A stretch of DNA of 64,000 nucleotides from an uncultured delta proteobacterium (GTDB taxonomy: Bacteria; Desulfobacterota; Syntrophia; Syntrophales; UBA2185), in contig CAVSPA010000006.1 in NCBI GenBank assembly GCA_963729715.1, positions 160,001 to 224,000 on the forward strand, read 5' to 3'. Numbering within the stretch: the stretch's first letter is position 1; every line of letters begins with the position of its first letter. The notes below the pieces were generated by a model that saw only the letters and a program-made list of their open reading frames with translations, was not told where the DNA came from and made no database searches. The position numbers and the translations under genes are program-made. Below are positions 3,846-15,686 of the stretch, in pieces.

Positions 3846-3997
3846 TCGCATTTTTGCGATAGTTACAATTTTGTAATTTTTAAATTTAAATGAACAAAAT
3901 TGTTACAGATTATACCATCTAACATCAGAAACCTGATACAACAAATTAGTTAATACAGCTACTTACATAATATGACTCGGTTAGCATCAAAATTGCA
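3846..3997 (+). promoter_or_regulatory. Putative amtB control region: three CA-N4-TG dyads and an imperfect sigma54 -24/-12 element
   Basis: TCGCA-TTTT-TGCGA 3846-3859, TTACA-ATTT-TGTAA 3863-3876, GAACA-AAAT-TGTTA 3892-3905; TAGCATCAAAATTGCA 3982-3997 (AG instead of GG). Confidence 0.4.
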
Positions 3998-4043
3998 AAA
4001 CAATATCCTTGATATATCAAATAACCCGCGGGAGGTAAATTGT

Positions 4044-5276
4044 ATGAACTCAGGCGATACAGCATGGGTATTAGTATCGACAGCGCTGGTCTTTTTTATG
4101 GTTCCAGGATTGGCGCTTTTTTATGGGGGCATGACACGCAGGAAGAATGTCCTCTCCACCCTGATGCAATGCATCATCGTCGTGTGCCTGATAAGTGTCC
4201 AGTGGGTATTATTCGGTTACACGCTGGCGTTCGGACCCGATTCAGGCTTCGGAATACTTGGAAATCTCGACTTCATATGTCTGCGGAATGTGGGTTTCAA
4301 CCCTTTCAATGAATATTCAAAAACAATCCCCCATCTCGCGTTTATGATTTTTCAGTGCATGTTTGCCATTATTACACCCGCATTGGTCATTGGCGCATTT
4401 GCGGAGCGCATCAAATTTTCGTCTTTTTGCATTTTTTCCTTGCTGTGGGCTACTTTTGTCTACGACCCCATCGCACACTGGATTTGGGGAGCCGGTGGCT
4501 GGCTGAAAGAATTGGGAGGCCTTGATTTTGCCGGCGGTATGGTTGTTCATGGAAGCTCAGGTTTTGCCGCACTTGTCGTTTGTCTTCTGATTGGCCAGAG
4601 AGTCGGCTATCAAGAACAGCCTTTCCGGCCGCATAATCTTCCCTTTACCGTATTGGGGGCCGGCATGCTCTGGTTCGGGTGGTTCGGCTTCAACGCTGGG
4701 AGCGCTCTTGAAGCGAGCGGGTTGGCAGTTAATGCCTTTGTCAGCACCAATATTGCCGCTGCAGTTGCGGCTCTGACATGGGCAATCTGGGAGTGGCAGA
4801 AACACGGCGCACCGACCATGCTCGGTTTGGTTACCGGTATTATAGCCGGACTAGGGGCAATTACGCCGGCCTGTGGTTATGTAAGGCCTCTTGCGGCCAT
4901 ACCAATTGGAATTTTGGCAGGCGTTTTCTCTTTCCTCGCTGTAACAAAAATGAAAGCCAGACTGGGTTATGATGATTCGCTGGATGTTTTCGGCGTTCAT
5001 GGAATTTGCGGCGTATGGGGAACAATTGCAACAGGCCTCTTTGCGGAAAAAGCAATTAATGCCGCCGGAGAAAACGGCTTTCTTTTCGGCAACGCTAAAC
5101 TGCTACTCATACAGGGGCTTTATGTTGCTGTCACTATTTGTTACTCAGTCGCAGTAACCTGGATTCTGTATAAATTCGTTGATGCCTTTATGGGCATGAG
5201 GGTTGAGAAGAAGGATGAGATCATCGGCCTTGACCTGACCCAGCATCACGAATCCGCCTACACCGTTGTGGAATAA
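4044..5276 (+). CDS. amtB: Ammonium transporter
   Basis: GDTAWVL, DFAGGMVVH, WFGWFGFNAGS, DDSLDVFGVHG; GGAGG RBS before ATG 4044. Confidence 0.97.
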   Translation: MNSGDTAWVLVSTALVFFMVPGLALFYGGMTRRKNVLSTLMQCIIVVCLISVQWVLFGYTLAFGPDSGFGILGNLDFICLRNVGFNPFNEYSKTIPHLAFMIFQCMFAIITPALVIGAFAERIKFSSFCIFSLLWATFVYDPIAHWIWGAGGWLKELGGLDFAGGMVVHGSSGFAALVVCLLIGQRVGYQEQPFRPHNLPFTVLGAGMLWFGWFGFNAGSALEASGLAVNAFVSTNIAAAVAALTWAIWEWQKHGAPTMLGLVTGIIAGLGAITPACGYVRPLAAIPIGILAGVFSFLAVTKMKARLGYDDSLDVFGVHGICGVWGTIATGLFAEKAINAAGENGFLFGNAKLLLIQGLYVAVTICYSVAVTWILYKFVDAFMGMRVEKKDEIIGLDLTQHHESAYTVVE

Positions 5277-5291
5277 GGAGGGTAGTTAGCC

Positions 5292-5633
5292 ATGAAATAT
5301 ATAGTCGCGATAATACAGCCCCACAAACTGGACGAGGTGATGAAAAGCCTGGAGGATGTGGAGGTGAACTTGGTGACCGTATCGAATGTACTCGGACGCG
5401 GCAGGCAGAAGGGTTTGACGGAGATCTACCGGGGTGCGAAGGAGGTAGGGAGCCTGCTGAAGAAGATAAAGCTGGAGATAGCGTGCAACGAGGATTTTGT
5501 GGAGCCGACGGTACAGGCGATCATCAAGGGAGCACGGACGGGAGAGATCGGAGACGGGAAGATATTCGTGATTGACCTCTACGATGTTATCCGGATCCGC
5601 ACAGGCGAACGGGGCGGCAAGGCCATAGGATAA
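5292..5633 (+). CDS. glnK: PII nitrogen regulatory protein
   Basis: [30 protein letters not shown]; directly after amtB. Confidence 0.95.
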
Positions 5634-5651
5634 AGGAGAGGTGCGAGAGAT

Positions 5652-7067
5652 ATGAATCTTAAAGAGCTAATGAAGTATTCCAAGGACAAGCGTCTGGAGT
5701 TTATTGATCTGAAATTCACGGACATCCCAGGATTGTGGCAGCACATCACGATACCGATCCAGCAGTTGGACGAGGACCTGGTTATCCATGGTATCGGTTT
5801 CGATGGTTCGAGCATCCGGGGGTTCCAGCCGATCAACGAGAGTGACATGCTGATCAAGCCTGATCCTGAGACCGCATTCATCGATCCTTTCATGGCGGAT
5901 CCCACGCTGAGCATGATCTGCAACGTCAAGGATCCCCTGACGCAGATACCGTATTCGCGTGACCCGCGTAACGTAGGACAGAAGGCGGAGAGGTACCTAT
6001 CGGTCTGCGGGATAGCGGATCAGGTTTTTTTCGGTCCGGAGCCCGAGTTTTACGTCTTTGATGATGTACGTTTCGAACAGACTTACAACACGGGTTTTTA
6101 CCGTGTCGATTCGAAGGAGGGATTCTGGAATACGGCAAGGGACGAGGGGCCGAATCTCGGATACAAGCCGCGCTACAAAGAAGGCTACTTTCCTGTGCCT
6201 CCCACAGACAGCCTGCAGAATCTCCGGGCGAAAATGTGCAAGGTGATGACGGAAGTGGGGATTCCTGTGATTCTCCATCACCACGAGGTTGCCACGGCGG
6301 GCCAGTGCGAGATCGGTGTGCGTATCAATAACCTTGTGGACACGGGAGACATGTTGATGAAGTACAAGTATGTGGTAAAGAACGTCGCCCTGGCGCACGG
6401 GAAGACGGTGACGTTCATGCCGAAGCCGCTCTTCATGGATAACGGTTCGGGAATGCATGTGCACCAGAGCCTCTGGAAGAACGGCAGGAACCTATTTTAT
6501 GAGCCAGGCGGATACGGAGGAATCAGCAAGCTCTGCCGCAACTATATCGGGGGCCTGCTGCATCATGCTCCATCGCTTCTGGCCTTTACGTCACCCACGA
6601 CGAATTCATACAGGAGACTCGTTCCGGGGTATGAGGCTCCGATCAACCTGGTGTACTCGCAGCGGAACCGGAGCGCATGTGTGAGGATACCGATGTATTC
6701 ACCCTCCGAGAAGGCGAAGCGTATAGAGTTTCGTTGTCCCGACTGTTCCTGCAATCCGTACCTGGCGCTTGCGGCGATGCTCATGGCGGGTCTGGACGGC
6801 ATCGAGAACGAGATCGAGCCGCCGCCGCCCATCGATGAGGATATCTATGAGCTTTCGCATGAGGAGAAGAGCCATATCAAGGCGACGCCCGGCTCCCTTT
6901 CAGAGGTGCTGGATGCGCTGGAGAAGGAGCACTCCTATCTTCTTAAAGGTGATGTCTTTACGGAGGACCTGATCCAGACGTGGATCGAGTACAAACGAAA
7001 GAGGGAGGACGACCTGATCAGGCTTCGTCCCCATCCTTACGAGTTTGCGTTGTACTACGATATTTAA
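5652..7067 (+). CDS. glnA: Type I glutamine synthetase
   Basis: [51 protein letters not shown]. Confidence 0.98.
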
Positions 7068-7111
7068 ATGACAGGAATAAAACGATCAATATAAATTAGG
7101 AGGTTAAGGAC

Positions 7112-8383
7112 ATGGATATAGGAATGGTGAGCATTTTTATTGGCGTGCTGGTCATCATGGCAGTCATTATTTATATCAAGGCGAACATGAAGATCTGTGA
7201 GCCCAATGAGGTAATGATTTTCTCCGGCAGGCAGTTTAAGGATAAGGACAAAAAGTCGGTGGGCTACCGTGTCATCAAGGGCGGCCGGGGTTTGAAGATC
7301 CCGCTTATCGAGACGGTGCGGACGATATCGTTAAACACGATGCCCATCGAGATGGATGTAACGGGTGCGCTCACGAGGGGGACGATCCCCGTGAATGTGA
7401 AGGCCATAGCGAATATCAAGATTGCCGGCACCATGGAGGATGGTCTGGGCAATGCCATCGAGAGGTTCCTGGGTAAGAGCGCGACGGCGATAGTGACGAC
7501 GGCAAGGGAAATCCTGGAAGGAACCCTGCGTGGCATCCTGGCGACGATGGAGCCTGAGGAGGCGAATGCGAACCGGATAGCGTTGGCGCAACAAGTTGCC
7601 AGAGAGGCAAGGGAAGATATGCAGCGGCTGGGTCTGGTTCTGGATACGTTCAAGATCCAGGAGATCAAGGATGACAAGGGGTATTTAGAGGCTATCGCAC
7701 GGAAGAAGAACGCCGAGGTCCACCGGGATGCGCGGATCGTGGAGGCCGAATCGAATGCGGAGGCGAGCAAGAAGGAGTCCGAGGGCAAGAAGATTGCGGA
7801 AATTGCGGAGATCCAGGCCCGGCGGTCCGTTGTAGAGACGGAGATGAATTTCAGGGTTCAGCAGGCACAATGGAAGGCTGACGCCAATCGTGCGGAGGAG
7901 AAGGCAAAGGTGGCAGGAGACATCTCGCGCATGGAGGAGACGAAGACCCTTGAGGCTCGGCGTGTGGAGACGAACAAGCTGAAGTATCAGGCGGATGTGA
8001 TAATTCCCGCGGCAGCGGAGAAGGAAGCATTACTGATGAAAGCTGCGGGAGCGGCGGCAAGCACGTTTGAGGAAGGGAAGGCGAAGGCGGAGGCGTTAAG
8101 GCTGCTACGTGAGCAGTGGGAACACCCGAACAGCAAGGACCTGTTCATGATCCAGCTCATGCCGGAACTTGTGGGTCATGTATCGAAGGTGATTGCCTCC
8201 AATCTCAGTGTGGAAAGGCTGACTGTAGTTGATGGGGGCGGAAGTGGCAGCGGCGGCGGTATCCCCCACCTGGTAGGGAACCTGGCCGGCTCGGTCAATT
8301 CCTTCTTCGAACAGATGAAGACTATGACAGGCCTGGACCTCGCCAGGTTGATAGAAGAACACTACCAGGCGTCGTCTAAATAA
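7112..8383 (+). CDS. Flotillin-family (SPFH) membrane protein
   Basis: N-terminal TM, PNEVMIFSG, NAIERFLG, LEGTLRGILA, AE-rich coiled coil; GGAGG RBS. Confidence 0.9.
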   Translation: MDIGMVSIFIGVLVIMAVIIYIKANMKICEPNEVMIFSGRQFKDKDKKSVGYRVIKGGRGLKIPLIETVRTISLNTMPIEMDVTGALTRGTIPVNVKAIANIKIAGTMEDGLGNAIERFLGKSATAIVTTAREILEGTLRGILATMEPEEANANRIALAQQVAREAREDMQRLGLVLDTFKIQEIKDDKGYLEAIARKKNAEVHRDARIVEAESNAEASKKESEGKKIAEIAEIQARRSVVETEMNFRVQQAQWKADANRAEEKAKVAGDISRMEETKTLEARRVETNKLKYQADVIIPAAAEKEALLMKAAGAAASTFEEGKAKAEALRLLREQWEHPNSKDLFMIQLMPELVGHVSKVIASNLSVERLTVVDGGGSGSGGGIPHLVGNLAGSVNSFFEQMKTMTGLDLARLIEEHYQASSK

Positions 8384-8702
8384 AAAAACATGTCGCAAAG
8401 GCAACTGCGGCATGTCTCACATTCCCGCGAAAATTCTCCTCCCCCCGCGGGAGGGGAATGACGGGAGGTAGCGATGAAAGGTGTTTTCACTCACCTCAAC
8501 ATCTCCCGCGATATATTGCGCAGTAAGACTCCACGGAATAATATATGTAGCACCTTCCATTTTATTTCTTCTGTCCATCTATTCTCATGCGGCGGGGCGG
8601 GGAGCCTGCGATAGGGTTTTTCCTTATTGTCCCCCTCCCGCTTTTCACCGATTAGTAAAACTGGGTTTGATATTTACGAGGGAATATTGTAAACCTTTGT
8701 CC

Positions 8703-10121
8703 ATGAGACGGAAGGACGCACAGTATGCAAAGGTTTATCGAGGGAAGGCGCTGATTGCCGATCCCATATACCAGTATGCCTCTTTTACTGTGCCGACAAC
8801 TGATTTTCCGGACGAGAAAACGGAAAAGGACCTGATCGATTCTCCCTGGGTTCAAAGATTGCGGAGAATTTACCAGCTCCAGAGTGCCCGCTGGGTGTAT
8901 CCGGCCGCAGAGCACAGTCGATTCCAGCATTCCCTCGGGACCATGCACGTGGCGGGCGAGTTCGGAAGATATCTTTATCCCAGCCTGAAAGAGGTGTGCA
9001 GGGATGCCCCTTCATTGAACTATGTTGAGGAGGTTCTCCGCGTTGCGGGACTTCTGCATGATGTGGGGCATGGCCCGTACGGGCATTTTTTCGATGACCA
9101 CTTTCTCAGCCAGTATGACATTACCCATGAGGATCTGGGAAAAGCGATTATCACGAAAAGGTTGGGGAAGATCATCCGTCAAATCCGAAGAAGCCCTAAC
9201 GGTCCCTTTGCCGGTGGTGAATGCCTCGACCCAAATCACGTGGCAATTCTGATTAAAATGCCGGAGGGGGATGAAACTGGGGTGCCGCGGTGGCTGCAGC
9301 TTCTGAGGCAGCTCTTTTCAGGCATTTACACCGTGGATAATCTCGACTATGTGCAGAGAGACGCCTACATGACGGGGTTCTCCCTCGATATTGTGGATAT
9401 TACGAGACTTCGCTTTTATACTTTCTTTACGAAAGACGGCTTCACCCTGCATCAGGCAGGCATCTCGGCCCTGAGTCGCTTCATAAATGCAAGATTGAAT
9501 CTCTATACAAATGTCTATTTCCATAGGACGACGAGAGCTCTTGATCTTCATCTGCAGGAGATATTCAGGGAAACGATGCGCATAATCTTTCCATGGAATC
9601 CATTGGAGGCGCTTGACGAGTATCTGAATTGCGATGAATGGCATTTGTACTATATAGTTTTGGGCTGGCTCGGGGAAAAGGACCGGAAGAAACAGAGACT
9701 GAGTCAGGAATGGACAAAGCTTTACAGCAGGGAAGTGAAATGGAAGATGTCTTTTTCAACAGAGATATCCATCGACCAGATTCAAAGGGGGACGAGATTC
9801 GCCCATGCAGGCGACTATGAAAAGCAACTCAGGAGTTTTCTTCCTGAAAAACTGAAAGGCATTCCATTTCGCGTCGATTTGGCAACACAGGACCCACGCC
9901 CCATAAACCCCATGGCAGAGACGGAAAAAAGGGTTAATATCTTCAACCCGACCACGGGTACAACGTCCCCGGAGCCATTGAGAGACATCTACCGCTTTAT
10001 ACCGGCGCGTGTCGTTCATCTGCGCGTCTTTGCACTTTCCCACGATAATGATGCAGCGATTTCCAAGGCCGCTGAAAAGATGCTTAGCGCCTTGGAGGGA
10101 ACTGCAAAGACTAATGTATGA
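8703..10121 (+). CDS. HD-domain phosphohydrolase, dNTP triphosphohydrolase/SAMHD1-like
   Basis: DPIY, QRLRRIYQL, HSRFQHSLG, LLHDVGHGPYGH, VDNLDYVQRD; start taken at ATG 8703. Confidence 0.88.
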   Translation: MRRKDAQYAKVYRGKALIADPIYQYASFTVPTTDFPDEKTEKDLIDSPWVQRLRRIYQLQSARWVYPAAEHSRFQHSLGTMHVAGEFGRYLYPSLKEVCRDAPSLNYVEEVLRVAGLLHDVGHGPYGHFFDDHFLSQYDITHEDLGKAIITKRLGKIIRQIRRSPNGPFAGGECLDPNHVAILIKMPEGDETGVPRWLQLLRQLFSGIYTVDNLDYVQRDAYMTGFSLDIVDITRLRFYTFFTKDGFTLHQAGISALSRFINARLNLYTNVYFHRTTRALDLHLQEIFRETMRIIFPWNPLEALDEYLNCDEWHLYYIVLGWLGEKDRKKQRLSQEWTKLYSREVKWKMSFSTEISIDQIQRGTRFAHAGDYEKQLRSFLPEKLKGIPFRVDLATQDPRPINPMAETEKRVNIFNPTTGTTSPEPLRDIYRFIPARVVHLRVFALSHDNDAAISKAAEKMLSALEGTAKTNV

Positions 10122-10240
10122 CCCGATCATCGGAAATATTTTTTGTCTATAGTGTTGAACACTATATGTCTTTTATCCCCCTACGCATTGCTTAGGGAAA
10201 ACTCCGGGGAAAAATTATGACAAATTTAAGGTAATCGCGG

Positions 10241-12307
10241 ATGGCAAATGACGAGACCACAGATATAACCCTGTTCGTGAAGACATCCGGCGAGGATATT
10301 GCCAGATGGAACCGGCAGAAAATTGTTGATGCCCTGATCCGTGAAACGAACGTCAATGTAGATACGGCAGAGGCAATCAGCAGAGAAGTTGAAAAACAGA
10401 TCATTTCATCCGGTATCGGTGTACTGACTACGCCCCTCATCAGGGAACTGGTGGACGCAAAACTAATCGAGAGGGGCCTTGAACAGGCAAGAAAGATGCA
10501 CGCCCTGCTGGGATTTCCCATTTATGATGTACGGCAGTTGATCCTTCTTCAGAATAAGGAAAACGCCAACATACCTCACAGTCCGGAAGGCACGAATCTG
10601 ATACTTGCGGAAGGAATAAAGAAAGAATACTCACTCTATGAGGTCTTTTCTCGGGAAGTCGCAGATGCGCATGTTATGGGCGATATCCACCTTCATTCTC
10701 TGGGATACATAGACAGGCCGTACAGTTCATTTCAGTCTCTTGAATATATAAAGAAATTCGGTTTGAACCTTCCCCACTCCCTAACAGTTGCCAAACCGGC
10801 CAAACATGCGGAGGTACTCCTCGCCCATATGGTCAGATTCGGCGCCATTCTGCAGGGGCATTTTGCCGGAGTCATCGGCTGGGATGCCGTTAATTTCTCT
10901 TTTGCACCCTATCTGGCAGAGATGAGCGAAAAGGAAGTCAGGCAATTCGCCCAGATGCTCATTTATGAATTCTCCCAATTGACATCGGCTAGGGGCGGGC
11001 AGGCCATGTTTACTGACATTCACCTCTACTGGGATGTTCCGGAACATCTTCGGGATGTTCCGATTATCGGCCCGGGAGGAGAATTGACGGGGAGTAATTA
11101 CGAAGATTTCGCCGCTGATGCAAGGAGATTTGCTTGGGCCATTTTCGAAGTCTTTATAAAAGGGGACGGTACGGGCAAGCCTTTCATATTTCCCAGGCCA
11201 CTCGTTCATATTACCGGGAATTTTTTTCAAACGCCGGGTCATGAAGACTTTCTCAATCTCATCTGCCGCGTTGCCGTTGACAAGGGAAATACATGCTTCC
11301 TTTTCGATCGCGAGGAGATGATTAAGGCTTATTCGTGCGGTTTTCCGGCCACCGCTGAAAAGGGTAATGTGTCTGCCGAGGCGAAGATGCCCTGGCGGAT
11401 GAGATGTCCGGTCTTACAGAACGTGACACTGAACCTTCCCAGGCTGGGTTACAAAGTCGAGGGGGATGAGAAAAGATTATTGTCTATGCTCTCCGATCTT
11501 ATGGAAGTGGCAGCAAAAGCCCACGTAGAGAAGAAGGATTTTATTGAGAAGCTACTCTCCCACGGTGACGAAGGACCGCTGTCCGTGCTCGCGATGAAGA
11601 GAGATGGCTATCCGTATCTGAGGATGGATCATGCATGCTTCCTCATCGGCACTGTGGGACTCAACGAACTTGTCCGGATTCATACGGGAAGCCAGTTGCA
11701 TGAATCGGAAGATGCCCTGATGTTTGGTTTGAAACTGATCGCCCATATGAAGGATGAGACCGAAAAACTGAGCCGGAAATATGGCTTGAATTTTATCTTG
11801 GAACAGACGCCTGCGGAAACCACAGCCTACCGTTTTGCACGGCTCGATCTGCGATACTATTCTCCGAAGGCGGGTCATTTTGTGCAGGGTGATATTTCGA
11901 AGGGAGAGGTCTACTATACAAATTCAACCCATCTTAGCCCATCAGCCACTGTGGATCCAATAGAACGTGTAAGACAGGAAGGCCGCTTTCATCCTTTGAC
12001 AAAGGGAGGAGGCGTTACCCAGGTGTGGCTCGGCGATGTTCGACCTTCGAGTGAGGAAATCGTCGGGTTTATCACCAAGGCATTTACGGATACTGAGAAC
12101 GATCAGCTTCTGTTCTGTCCTGAATTTACCACCTGTAGAGAATGCGGCCAGACATTCAGGCGCCTAAAAGATGAGTGTCAATTCTGCGGCTCGAAGGATG
12201 TGGAAGGGATAGCGAGGATTACCCAGTATTTCAGCAGGATATCCGGCTGGAATAGAGGTAAACTGGCTGAACTCAGGGACAGGAAGAGATACGAGGAAAT
12301 CAGTTGA
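10241..12307 (+). CDS. nrdD: Class III (anaerobic) ribonucleotide reductase-like protein with ATP cone; glycyl-radical Gly replaced by Gln
   Basis: ATP cone, GDIHLH, NVTLNLPR, GLNE, EQTPAE, YYTNS, CxxC...CxxC, WNRGK..E..DR; the RITGY motif reads RITQY. Confidence 0.85.
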   Translation: MANDETTDITLFVKTSGEDIARWNRQKIVDALIRETNVNVDTAEAISREVEKQIISSGIGVLTTPLIRELVDAKLIERGLEQARKMHALLGFPIYDVRQLILLQNKENANIPHSPEGTNLILAEGIKKEYSLYEVFSREVADAHVMGDIHLHSLGYIDRPYSSFQSLEYIKKFGLNLPHSLTVAKPAKHAEVLLAHMVRFGAILQGHFAGVIGWDAVNFSFAPYLAEMSEKEVRQFAQMLIYEFSQLTSARGGQAMFTDIHLYWDVPEHLRDVPIIGPGGELTGSNYEDFAADARRFAWAIFEVFIKGDGTGKPFIFPRPLVHITGNFFQTPGHEDFLNLICRVAVDKGNTCFLFDREEMIKAYSCGFPATAEKGNVSAEAKMPWRMRCPVLQNVTLNLPRLGYKVEGDEKRLLSMLSDLMEVAAKAHVEKKDFIEKLLSHGDEGPLSVLAMKRDGYPYLRMDHACFLIGTVGLNELVRIHTGSQLHESEDALMFGLKLIAHMKDETEKLSRKYGLNFILEQTPAETTAYRFARLDLRYYSPKAGHFVQGDISKGEVYYTNSTHLSPSATVDPIERVRQEGRFHPLTKGGGVTQVWLGDVRPSSEEIVGFITKAFTDTENDQLLFCPEFTTCRECGQTFRRLKDECQFCGSKDVEGIARITQYFSRISGWNRGKLAELRDRKRYEEIS

Positions 12308-12434
12308 CTCCGCATACGTCTAAGTATGCCTCATACCGTATGATTTGCACACCCTAGAACTCGCGTTTTCTACGCGGCCGTCTGTTTGTCAATCCTGCAA
12401 AAGATTTTTTTCGTATATCATTAATGCCCTGCCC

Positions 12435-12463
12435 TTGACATGGGATAGGCCGATAAATATATT
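12435..12463 (+). promoter_or_regulatory. sigma70-type promoter for gmhA-grpE-dnaK
   Basis: TTGACA-17 nt-TATATT. Confidence 0.55.
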
Positions 12464-12508
12464 ACGCACAGAATTTGGCCATTTTAAACGCAAGACCGCA
12501 TAGTTGAC

Positions 12509-13093
12509 ATGGAAGATCATATAGTAAAGATATTCAAGGAAAGCAGTAATCTGACGGATGTTTTCGTCGCAGAAAATCTTGATGGTATTGTCAGTGTCAT
12601 TGAGGCAATTACGGCGGCATTGAAAGCAGGAAACAAAATACTGCTGTTTGGGAACGGTGGCTCCGCCGCTGATGCCCAGCATCTGGCAGCAGAATTTGTG
12701 AACCGCTTCGTTATAGAACGTCCGCCGCTTCCGGCAATTGCCTTGAGCACCGATACATCCGTGATTACGAGCATCGCTAACGATTATGACTTCTCTGAGA
12801 TATTCAGCAAGCAGATCAGGGCGATAGGCCAGACAGGCGACGTGGCGTGGGGCATAAGCACCAGCGGTGCCTCTCCAAACATCATAAAAGCCATTGAAGC
12901 AGCAAAGAAGATAGGGATGATCACAGTAGGCATGACGGGGAAGGACGGGGGCGACATAGCCAAGATGGTGGACTATTCACTCAATGTTTCCTCTAACAGC
13001 ACACCGCGCGTGCAGGAGGTCCACATTACCGTGGGCCATGTGATATGCGAGATGATTGACTATAAGCTCTTTCAGAGGCCGGATGCGAAATAA
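12509..13093 (+). CDS. gmhA: Phosphoheptose isomerase
   Basis: GNGGSAADAQHLAAE, ANDYDF, STSG.S.N, RVQEVHI..GH. Confidence 0.95.
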   Translation: MEDHIVKIFKESSNLTDVFVAENLDGIVSVIEAITAALKAGNKILLFGNGGSAADAQHLAAEFVNRFVIERPPLPAIALSTDTSVITSIANDYDFSEIFSKQIRAIGQTGDVAWGISTSGASPNIIKAIEAAKKIGMITVGMTGKDGGDIAKMVDYSLNVSSNSTPRVQEVHITVGHVICEMIDYKLFQRPDAK

Positions 13094-13148
13094 AGGCGGC
13101 GACGCCGCCTCGGGCATAAGACGATCTGAAATGATGAATCGACACCAT

Positions 13149-13721
13149 ATGAGCCATAAAATAAAAAAGGAAGTTACAAAAGAAACACCGGATGTTCTGG
13201 AAAAAGAAGGGGAAGAGCAACAAATCTCCGGTGATGAGGATATAATGTTAAAGCTTCAGGAAAAGGAAAAGGAGGCAGCCGACAACTACGACAAATATGT
13301 GCGTGCGGTTGCGGAACTTGAAAATTACAGAAAACGCGCAGCAAGGGAGAAGGCTGATTCGATTAAATATGGCAATGAAAATATCATTAAGGATATCTTG
13401 CCCCTGGTAGACAGCATGGACAGGGCATTACAGCATGCTGACAGCTATGGCTATTCCGATTCATTTAAGAAGGGATTAAAGCTCCTCCAGGATCAGCTCC
13501 TGGGTTGCCTCGGAAAACACGGCGTGCAGCAAATCGAGTGTGTTGATAAAACTTTTGATCCAAACATCCATGAAGCCGTATTTCAAGTTGATACCGGCAC
13601 CCATGAGGATAACAAAGTCGTTGAGGAACTGGAAAAGGGGTATCGTCTGCATGAGAGGCTGTTGAGGCCGGCCAAAGTGTCTATTTTTAAACTACCGAAG
13701 AAAGAAGATAGCAAGGAATAA
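13149..13721 (+). CDS. grpE: Nucleotide exchange factor GrpE (start 13131-13149 uncertain)
   Basis: AELENYRKR, FDPNIHEAV, KGY.LHERLLRPAKV; precedes dnaK. Confidence 0.95.
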   Translation: MSHKIKKEVTKETPDVLEKEGEEQQISGDEDIMLKLQEKEKEAADNYDKYVRAVAELENYRKRAAREKADSIKYGNENIIKDILPLVDSMDRALQHADSYGYSDSFKKGLKLLQDQLLGCLGKHGVQQIECVDKTFDPNIHEAVFQVDTGTHEDNKVVEELEKGYRLHERLLRPAKVSIFKLPKKEDSKE

Positions 13722-13760
13722 ATAAAAGGGGAAACCAGATATTAAGGAGGATTGTTAGAG

Positions 13761-15686
13761 ATGGGTAAGATTATAGGGATTGATTTAGGGACGACAAATT
13801 CATGTGTAGCAATTATGGAAGGAGGAGATCCCGTTGTAATAGCAAATCAGGAAGGAAGCAGGACCACGCCTTCCATGGTGGCGTTTACAGATAGTGGTGA
13901 GAGGCTGGTCGGTCAAGTTGCCAAGCGACAGGCCGTAACCAATCCGGAAAATACCGTTTATGCCATAAAGAGGCTCATAGGGAGGAAGTTTTCCTCCAAA
14001 GAGGTTCAGTACGATAAATCGGTATGTCCTTACAGGATTACGGAGGCGCCCAACGGTGATGCCCAAGTGACCATAAAAGGACGGAATTACAGCCCGGCGG
14101 AAATATCAGCTTTTATTCTTATGAAGATGAAACAGACAGCGGAGGATTACCTTGGAGAGAAAGTAACCGATGCGGTTATTACGGTGCCCGCGTACTTCAA
14201 TGACTCTCAGAGGCAGGCTACGAAAGATGCAGGAAGAGTTGCCGGATTGAATGTGCTCAGAATCATCAATGAACCGACGGCAGCAGCCCTTGCATACGGT
14301 CTTGATAAGAAAAAAGATGAAAAGATTGCCGTGTTCGACCTTGGCGGCGGGACGTTTGATATTTCCATCCTCGAGCTAGGAGACGGCGTTTTTGAAGTCA
14401 AGTCGACGAACGGAGATACCCATTTAGGTGGTGAAGACTTTGACCAGCGACTAATGGAATATATTGCCGTGGAATTCAAGAATGATTACGGTATTGATCT
14501 GCGTAATGACAGGATGGCCCTCCAGAGGATTAAGGAGGCGGCAGAAAAGGCGAAAATGGAACTTTCCACCGTTATGGAAACAGATATAAACCTTCCATTT
14601 ATAACTGCCGATGCGTCAGGGCCTAAACATTTGACGATGAAATTGACGAGAGCCAAGCTGGAATCTCTGATTGAGGACCTGATCGAAAAAACAGTAGGAC
14701 CCTGCAGAACCGCGCTTAAGGACGCAAACCTGACGGCAAAAGACATCAATGAGGTTATTCTCGTTGGCGGTATGACCCGTATGCCCAGGGTTCAGCAGAA
14801 GGTTAAAGAGATATTTGAGAAGGAACCCCACAAAGGGGTGAACCCTGATGAAGTGGTGGCAGTCGGCGCTGCTATCCAGGCGGGCGTCCTGGCAGGTGAT
14901 GTTAAAGATGTCCTCCTTTTGGATGTGACACCCCTGTCTCTCGGAATTGAGACCCTCGGTGGCGTGATGACGAGGCTGATCGAGAAGAATACCACCATTC
15001 CAACCCGGAAGAGCCAGATCTTTTCTACAGCTGCGGATAATCAGCCTGCCGTTAGCATTCACGTCCTGCAAGGTGAGAGGTCCATGGCGGCTGACAGCAG
15101 AACCCTGGGAAGATTTGAACTGGTAGGAATACCGCCCGCGCCGAGAGGTATGCCTCAGATTGAGGTGACCTTCGATATCGACGCCAACGGGATAGTTCAT
15201 GTATCGGCAAAAGACCTTGGGACAGGCAAAGAGCAGAGCATCAAGATTACTGCATCGAGCGGTTTGACTGAAGCAGAGATACAGAAACTGGTGAGAGAAG
15301 CGGAGGCTCATGGAGAGGAAGATAAGAAAAAGAAGGAGCTTATCGAGGCCAGAAATCAGGCGGATTCCATGGCATACAGCGCAGAGAAGAATGTCAAAGA
15401 ATTCGGGGATAAGATTGATGCCACAGAAAAGGCACGTATCGAAGATGCCATTGCCAGAGTAAGGAAGGTCATCGAAGGGGATGACATTAACGCCATCAAG
15501 AGCGCCCAGGAAGAACTGACGAACGCATCACATAAGCTTGCTGAGGCCATGTATGCAAAGGCTTCAGCCTCACAGGCAGGCGCTGGCGCAGGTCCAGGGG
15601 CGCACGGAGGGCCCGCCGGTGAACAGCCGGGCGCGAGCAAGAAGGATGAGGATGTGGTTGACGCTGACTTTGAAGACGTGAAATAA
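13761..15686 (+). CDS. dnaK: Hsp70 chaperone
   Basis: [42 protein letters not shown]. Confidence 0.99.

Follow-up and report, generated by a model that had tools for sequence, protein, structure and literature searches.

The stretch of DNA analysed here (64,000 nucleotides; the window) was shown by translation to contain a single open frame of 688 aa, without stop or frameshift, for a class III RNR homolog lacking the residues of radical chemistry, referred to below as nrdD* (Table 1). The start of nrdD* lies 119 nt behind the stop of a gene predicted to encode a SAMHD1-like HD-domain phosphohydrolase (HD), and gmhA-like, grpE and dnaK genes follow. The protein matched PF13597 (E=1e-127) and passed the TIGR02487 cut-off (355 bits compared to 326). 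An AlphaFold2 model based on a 120-sequence alignment (mean pLDDT 82) showed an ordered barrel and a finger loop of low confidence (residues 367–377). The model has the 10-stranded alpha/beta barrel of the family, and its best Foldseek matches were class III RNRs throughout. A domain search detected no DNA-binding domain on nrdD*, and NrdD clusters were the sole return from ESM Atlas.

Table 1. Features of the nrdD* locus, with positions in the window.
Feature	Position	Strand	Basis or remark
SAMHD1-like HD-domain phosphohydrolase gene, immediately upstream	8703..10121	+	start from homolog alignments; ORF open from 8481
Class III RNR homolog nrdD*, predicted catalytically dead, 688 aa	10241..12307	+	family matches, model, fold
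Divergent ATP-cone-like domain, residues about 5–90	10253..10510	+	PF03477 E=5e-5, below cut-off; own-genus dN/dS 0.035
NxN flap N108-A109-N110	10562..10570	+	aligns with NANMN of P. copri NrdD
HxHD triphosphate motif, here HLHS, both His kept, Asp lost	10688..10699	+	motif as described in PMC4493059
Ser162 replacing barrel Cys (T. maritima Cys125)	10724..10726	+	alignment
Dimer-interface specificity-effector site and loop 2, residues 184–254	10790..11002	+	hand-mapped to T. maritima NrdD
Degenerate finger loop, YSCGF for SECCRL	11306..11395	+	alignment; pLDDT under 50 at 367–377
E521 and TPAE-T-x-x-x-R phosphate-binding loop and helix start	11801..11833	+	conservation counts
Zn ribbon C632, C635, C646, C649	12134..12187	+	all four in 129/129 clade members
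Gln662 replacing glycyl-radical Gly	12224..12226	+	next residue Tyr663 invariant
gmhA-like gene	12509..13093	+	marks ancestral locus; nrdH-nrdG missing from it
grpE	13056–13721		downstream of gmhA-like gene
dnaK	13752–15686		follows grpE

The substitutions that the first-pass annotation had read from the sequence were all confirmed: the C-terminal motif is RITQYF with a CAG codon for Gln662, RPYC is replaced by RPYS with an AGT codon for Ser162, and the finger loop is reduced to YSCGF (Cys366 codon at 11336–11338). As it had also stated, nrdD* keeps TPAE and YYTNS, together with the four Zn cysteines and WNRGKLAELRDR. The ATP cone that it listed among the retained elements is present, but divergent, with 24.1 bits for PF03477 against a cut-off of 25.8; since the cone of an active relative (P0110) also scored below this cut-off (22.9 bits), a divergent cone is typical of this NrdD subfamily.

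Residues were hand-mapped onto a phmmer alignment to T. maritima NrdD, guided by the description of that enzyme in PMC4493059. The barrel Cys, described there as conserved across all known RNRs, was found in 0/100 Gly-less orthologs compared to 49/49 active relatives. Cys366 corresponds to the first Cys of the parental SECCRL, and the second Cys position, which lines up with the radical Cys in MGCR of T4 NrdD (PMC4493059), holds Gly367 (codon 11339–11341), so that the thiyl-radical Cys is absent; 13/100 Gly-less orthologs and 49/49 active relatives have this second Cys. The Asp of HxHD, present in 49/49 active relatives, was retained in 4/100 Gly-less orthologs (Ser153 in nrdD*), and Val211 takes the place of T. 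maritima Ala173, near the 2'-OH water. Every radical-chemistry residue examined in nrdD* is lost. The residues expected to bind nucleotides showed a different pattern. The effector-site and loop-2 span contains PAKH, R199, Q235, Q238, Q246, R251 and Q254, and F257 was mapped as well. Invariant in 129/129 members of the clade described below were H150, H152, A187, R199, Q238, Q246, Q254, E526, the Zn cysteines and Y663, while Q235 and R531 were each found in 127/129, R251 in 121/129 and E521 in 87/129. In the flap, N110 was present in 97/100 Gly-less orthologs and N108 was variable.

The source genome (3.76 Mb in 19 contigs; completeness 100%, contamination 6.5%), whose nearest named relatives are Syntrophales/Syntrophaceae bins, was found to contain the second, canonical nrdD-nrdG pair that had been predicted (G000:C4:400830–403859), and this pair is its sole complete RNR. 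The active NrdD is only 28% identical to nrdD*, contains VYC, SMCCRL, RVVGY and a standard cone, and belongs with its adjacent NrdG to the families PRK08270/TIGR02487 and TIGR02495; the only NrdG2 above cut-off in the genome adjoins this other nrdD. Searches of the same genome detected no class I or II RNR, no match to the PF01228 Gly_radical family and no ortholog of the thioredoxin-like nrdH, and NrdR is present (C7:321845–322285). A stand-alone glycyl-radical ORF, proposed earlier as a possible radical donor, was not found either; a six-frame search for the motif and C-terminal domain gave notable scores only for the two NrdDs.

Judged from gene content, the dNTPs of Syntrophales are supplied by a different nrdD-nrdG or by a class II RNR. 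In family f19, nrdD* was kept in 6/8 genomes in which no other NrdD or NrdG2 was found; five of these six contain a PF02867 (class I/II) match, which is class II in G039 and has broken frames in G365. For the sixth, G407, searches of the genome bin detected no other RNR, most likely due to an assembly gap, as the bin consists of 140 contigs. The f19 copies, including that of G407, have Ser or Gly at position 162 and no Cys in the finger-loop stretch examined.

Matches to nrdD* at high stringency were present in 114/121 genomes of the order and 128/301 genomes of the phylum. A tree of 158 non-identical proteins, each 640 aa or longer, from which duplicates, shorter ORFs and the frame-disrupted L009/L040 were left out, placed 129 degenerate orthologs, 128 of them from Syntrophales, in one clade (FastTree support 0.985; SH-aLRT 95 in a tree of 95 sequences that included distant outgroups). 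Besides, 49 of 50 loci fetched from outside the order were canonical (HxHD, RPYC, CC, RITGY), the remaining one (L138) being degenerate. Depending on the root, the degenerate clade falls either inside the active Desulfobacterota clade or next to it as its sister. Its two deepest Syntrophales branches (29 members) retain the Gly, mostly without the finger-loop motif or Cys162, and the Gly-lacking subclade comprises 99 members (support 0.916; the smaller tree gave 89.5 and put the long branch L189 within this subclade). In five of the 129 members (L181, L182, L183, L185 and L187) Cys162 is retained along with a CC pair and the Gly, and these proteins may still be active; no nrdG was found adjoining any of them. 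Further degenerate NrdD lineages were visible in a 50%-identity library.

RITQY had been suggested as a clade-defining motif, and it turned out to be only the commonest state: position 662 in the 129 members is Gln in 79, Gly in 29, Lys in 9, Arg in 6 and Asn in 2, with Leu, His, Pro and Cys once each. The nearest homologs were not all RITGY, as 105/121 (the query and its 120 best matches) had Gln and 7/121 had Gly at this position. Among the 100 Gly-less orthologs the Gln codon is CAG in 64 and CAA in 15; recurrence of Gln in relatives and the use of both codons exclude chance or a sequencing error for Gln662. By parsimony, Gln662 changed 7 times compared to 10 for the median site, a similar rate, which suggests that it is tolerated more than required. 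The six Arg members have CGN codons and may represent a single-step link between Gly and Gln.

Selection was assessed by pairwise NG86 dN/dS with Jukes-Cantor correction, and comparisons between groups included only pairs with dS 0.1–1.2. Within the genus, nrdD* showed a dN/dS of 0.087 (28 pairs, 8 genomes), compared to 0.042 for the active NrdD, 0.138 for nrdG, 0.070 for HD, 0.056 for gmhA and 0.043 for dnaK (7 genomes each for the last three), which bears out the earlier suggestion of a repurposed pseudoenzyme under purifying selection. Whole-gene values were 0.083–0.150 in all eight degenerate groups and 0.027–0.055 in four active groups, with 0.246 in a fifth active group. The cone (0.035–0.088 in the degenerate groups compared to 0.025–0.068 in the four active groups) and the flap (0–0.042 compared to 0–0.021) gave similar ranges, residues 136–270 gave 0.026–0.113 compared to 0.018–0.031, and residues 271–355 together with 386–627 gave 0.10–0.19 compared to 0.03–0.09, i.e., they were relaxed 2–3-fold; this calibration against active groups is noisy, as one of these (g98) has a relaxed cone (0.47). 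Constraint on the cone, flap and effector-site residues comes close to that in active enzymes, and the catalytic half is relaxed. A gain of constraint in the cone, suggested by identity and relative tree length, was not supported by dN/dS compared to active relatives, and only retention is claimed.

Several states were newly fixed in the degenerate clade, including K199R, N261H and K319R; where T. maritima has Gln161, Lys stands in 49/49 active relatives and Arg (R199) in 129/129 degenerate copies. In P. copri NrdD, closure of the active site is ascribed to a network made up of the flap, the Glu of TPAE and the Tyr that follows the radical Gly (PMC11226230), so the degenerate protein probably retains this closed shape. 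Purifying selection on nrdD* centres on nucleotide-binding and dimer-interface elements. Neither an assembly error nor a decaying pseudogene explains nrdD*.

Active loci were found to have the order nrdD, small thioredoxin-like gene, nrdG. An nrdG was present within 1.2 kb downstream in 45/47 active loci and in 0/121 degenerate loci, and 71/121 of the latter had gmhA within 500 bp downstream. In two active loci (L119 and L130) nrdD and nrdG run on into gmhA, which suggests that nrdH-nrdG was deleted in place. Paired 16-bp NrdR-box-like sites, scored by a home-made procedure with an NrdR consensus, were found upstream of 46/49 active orthologs and 15/16 second-type NrdD genes, often 31–32 bp apart in the active genes, a spacing that has been described for NrdR boxes (PMC13584703). 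They were found for 0/42 degenerate genes and 1/23 HD genes, each a one-in-three sample; for degenerate genes located behind HD the scanned region is mostly coding, so the count upstream of HD is the fairer test. With the linkage to activase and NrdR-like sites gone, nrdD* appears to have left the RNR regulon. Two other candidate elements were rejected: a 9-bp inverted repeat at 10148–10166, upstream of nrdD*, was not conserved in five genus relatives, and promoter-like matches in 8300–12600 were no more frequent than chance would give (5 against an expected 5.2).

The best PDB matches of HD were 2HEK, 2O6I and SAMHD1, and its metal-binding motifs were intact in 82–83 of 83 orthologs. HD was located within 300 bp upstream in 85/116 degenerate loci with enough flanking sequence compared to 0/26 active loci, and its stop lies at most 10 nt from the nrdD* start in 51/96. 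HD orthologs were present in 46/301 genomes of the phylum, and outside the order they were unlinked from nrdD in the fetched loci. Both genes are absent in 4/4 genomes of family f20. In family f110 the degenerate gene was found in 7/7 genomes and an HD ortholog in 0/7 at E<1e-60, and the single-contig genome G376 has RITQY and lacks HD. A profile search of five HD-negative genomes, four of them single-contig, gave one distant HD match only, and in HD-negative genomes the N-terminal half of nrdD* is still constrained. Conversely, three genomes (G260, G307 and G373) kept HD and had cleanly lost nrdD*. This comparison shows that the pairing of HD and nrdD* is not obligate, each gene persisting without the other.

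Taken together, nrdD* is probably a non-catalytic, nucleotide-binding class III RNR pseudoenzyme, i.e., a folded and probably dimeric NrdD in which radical chemistry is gone and nucleotide binding is putatively kept. The parent was a double-Cys, Glu-containing, Met-lacking NrdD, as Glu521 aligns with T. maritima Glu495 and relatives contain SECCRL; this kind is described as associated with thioredoxin use (PMC9669993). It was encoded in the order nrdD, small thioredoxin-like gene, nrdG under NrdR-box-like sites. The copy that became nrdD* lost the neighbouring activase gene and the NrdR-like boxes as well as Cys162, the radical Gly and the finger-loop motif, under persisting purifying selection. 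We infer that the cone binds ATP or dATP and that the effector site at the dimer interface takes dNTPs, and perhaps an NTP or dNTP is held in the closed former active site, where binding may be weak given the loss of Asp from HxHD and the variation at N108. A nucleotide sensor, as previously proposed, would match the pattern of retained sites, the sensing itself being conjectural.

In such a role nrdD* would report or buffer the dNTP pool and pass this state on to a client. The likeliest output would be tuning of the putatively co-transcribed SAMHD1-like dNTP hydrolase; granted that nrdD* is a nucleotide binder, the chances that this dNTPase is the client appear about even, with another partner or simple buffering as alternatives. 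The full proposal, in which nrdD* is an allosteric subunit whose cone and effector sites read the dNTP pool and gate the SAMHD1-like enzyme, is put forward only tentatively.

Several other readings were weighed against a nucleotide-binding pseudoenzyme. It seems unlikely that the closed barrel pocket has acquired a new, non-radical chemistry (hydrolysis or transfer) in dNTP turnover. Such an enzyme could account for H261, fixed in or near the pocket in 99/100 Gly-less copies where 49/49 active relatives have Asn, for the likewise newly fixed R199 (129/129), R319 and T527, and for the invariance of H150, H152, E526, Y663 and the Zn cysteines; but the barrel's C-terminal half is relaxed 2–3-fold, positions 153, 162, 211, 367 and 662 changed 7–20 times by parsimony (median site 10), and the fold search returned RNR and glycyl-radical-enzyme folds only. 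A slowly decaying relic, kept in frame because a misfolded product would be costly in the transcribed HD-gmhA-grpE-dnaK region, we regard as improbable. The dN/dS is double the value for the active NrdD, clean loss has occurred in three genomes and in family f20, three copies (L055, L060 and L069) end early inside contigs, one of them split, as is also seen in L255, and one more (L009/L040) is out of frame past residue 651. Decay is, however, hard to reconcile with dN/dS values of 0.08–0.15 in eight separate groups whose orthologs are only 48–92% identical, with a match in 114/121 genomes of the order, with constraint focused on ligand-binding residues and with persistence of the gene even after relocation away from HD and gmhA.

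The readings that keep nrdD* within ribonucleotide reduction fared worse. A regulatory heterodimer subunit of the active NrdD, or an enzyme given its radical in trans, both suggested in the first-pass annotation, is very improbable, even though most carrier genomes also have an active nrdD-nrdG, the dimer-interface residues are conserved and active NrdD dimers are described as having a single site at work at any given moment (PMC11226230). Both options are disfavoured: nrdD* is only 28% identical to the active copy, 6/8 f19 genomes kept it where no other NrdD and no NrdG2 was found, the searches of the source genome gave no separate glycyl-radical domain and, with Ser162 and Gly367 in the barrel, no radical acceptor is left. 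That nrdD* is still an RNR, through a shifted Gly or some other radical source, is hardly credible. RISGW at 666–670 resembles RVxGY/W, a motif known from glycyl radical enzymes, the protein passes the NrdD cut-off of TIGR02487 and the G407 bin shows no other RNR. However, Gly669 occurs in only 65/100 Gly-less copies, is among the faster-changing sites and is located past the radical hairpin in the model, and a shifted radical at this residue was rejected on conservation. As to G407, its missing RNR most likely lies in the assembly gap mentioned above, and the f19 copies lack the Cys residues at 162 and in the finger-loop stretch examined.

A real, conserved and mis-annotated protein is thus present, with a function deduced from its retained sites. 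No description of a catalytically dead class III RNR clade was found in the open-access literature, where supplementary sequence tables of RNR phylogeny papers may list members uncommented. The gap may be explained by the fact that RNRdb is described as having accepted only sequences with all key motifs (PMC2795772). As nrdD* passes the NCBIfam NrdD cut-off, annotation pipelines will take it for an enzyme, and counts of RNRs come out too high. Intermediates survive within the clade, the finger loop having been lost first, then Cys162 and then the Gly; they form a natural series for separating the allostery parts of RNR from the chemistry parts. If nrdD* does regulate the SAMHD1-like dNTPase, this would be a new link from dNTP synthesis machinery to breakdown, and a bacterial dNTP-homeostasis module without described precedent. 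Dead cone-bearing NrdDs may form a recurring class of nucleotide sensors, and nrdD*, as a predicted oxygen-stable, closed-state NrdD, could serve structural work on effector binding.

Compared to known systems, nrdD* was most similar to the double-Cys, Glu-containing class III RNRs of other Desulfobacterota (L114–L137, L225–L244), with 53–63% identity, equal domain order, and HxH, PAKH, the effector Gln residues, TPAE, the Zn ribbon and the WNxGK tail in common. HxHD, RPYC, RITGY and the finger-loop CC are present in all 49 active relatives, almost every one of which also has an nrdG and an NrdR-box-like site close by, whereas the window protein has none of these. The putative parent class is the thioredoxin type, named NrdD2 in the Wei scheme (PMC4493059, PMC9669993). 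The best matches among solved structures were NrdDs of T. maritima (4COI, 4COJ, 4U3E), P. copri (8P23, 8P2S), S. thermophilus (9DAU) and T4 (1H79). Their substrate-phosphate, loop-2 and effector-site positions fall on residues conserved in nrdD*, but identity is about 20% and all are enzymes with radical Gly and Cys, the T4 crystals being described as carrying an engineered Gly-to-Ala change (PMC9669993). The active NrdD-NrdG of the source genome shares family and fold with nrdD* and differs in motifs, cone and linked nrdG, and orthologs of this NrdD carry NrdR-box-like sites. NrdR itself, in which an ATP-cone senses ATP/dATP without catalysis, resembles the role proposed for nrdD*, but it is small and binds DNA. 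Among class I RNRs, catalytically dead subunits are known from beta-herpesviruses (R1 homologs such as M45/UL45) and yeast (Rnr4). These are viral or eukaryotic and have no partners in common with nrdD*, a bacterial class III alpha subunit; in them too the RNR fold has outlived its catalytic residues and taken on another job, as we propose for nrdD*.

The gene surroundings of nrdD*, which encodes the class III RNR (NrdD) homolog lacking catalytic residues, are summarized in the table below. The nitrogen cluster and the SPFH/flotillin-like gene were found in only some genus relatives, and the inverted repeat was not conserved among the five genus relatives compared. Of 121 loci with dead nrdD copies, i.e., copies without the residues for radical chemistry, 71 had a gmhA-like gene as the next gene downstream, among them loci lacking the SAMHD1-like HD-domain phosphohydrolase gene (HD).

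Features surrounding nrdD* (window positions)
Feature	Position	Location	Remark
amtB-glnB/K-glnA nitrogen cluster, then SPFH/flotillin-like gene	3972–8383	Just upstream of HD	
Perfect 9-bp inverted repeat, 1-nt spacer	10148–10166	HD-nrdD* gap	Overlaps a weak NrdR-like half site
gmhA-like gene	12509–13093		DiaA also matched (169 against 227 bits); below both cut-offs

Two copies of this NrdD subfamily were present in some genomes, both dead in G006 (contig C211) and G036 (C205) and both canonical in G285 (C8 and C89); contamination is possible in these cases. Genome G407, a bin rated 100% complete, contained a dead NrdD only (locus L249), and no other RNR and no NrdG2 were detected in it; the absence of another RNR probably reflects an assembly gap.

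In genus g98, the NrdDs with active motifs (L133 and L242–L244) showed unusually high dN/dS values of 0.25 for the whole gene, 0.47 for the cone and 0.61 for the C-terminal domain, and may have just begun to undergo the relaxation of constraint seen in the dead clade.

A degenerate nrdD copy was also found outside Syntrophales (L138, G059:C6). This copy contained the motifs RAYS and RITNY, was placed as sister to the Syntrophales clade, and was linked to neither HD nor gmhA, an HD ortholog being located elsewhere in the same genome. Degenerate Gly motifs such as RITRY, RVTTY, RVTDY and YVGER were further observed in 13 NrdD-like representatives (P0137, P0140, P0141, P0146, P0148, P0149, P0152, P0155, P0156, P0165, P0167, P0247, and P0264). 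P0140 and P0148 fell within the Syntrophales dead-NrdD clade, and most of the others formed long branches apart from it.

Besides, a large family of NrdD-like proteins of 740–775 aa was observed (P0193, P0198, P0203, P0205, P0226, P0253, and about 25 similar representatives). The family has an N-terminal REGxFDAQL-like motif and an extra strong ATP-cone (checked in P0193 and P0205), and a motif search detected neither the CxxC..CxxC ribbon nor RxxGY. These proteins constitute a second dead-NrdD family, more derived than that of Syntrophales.
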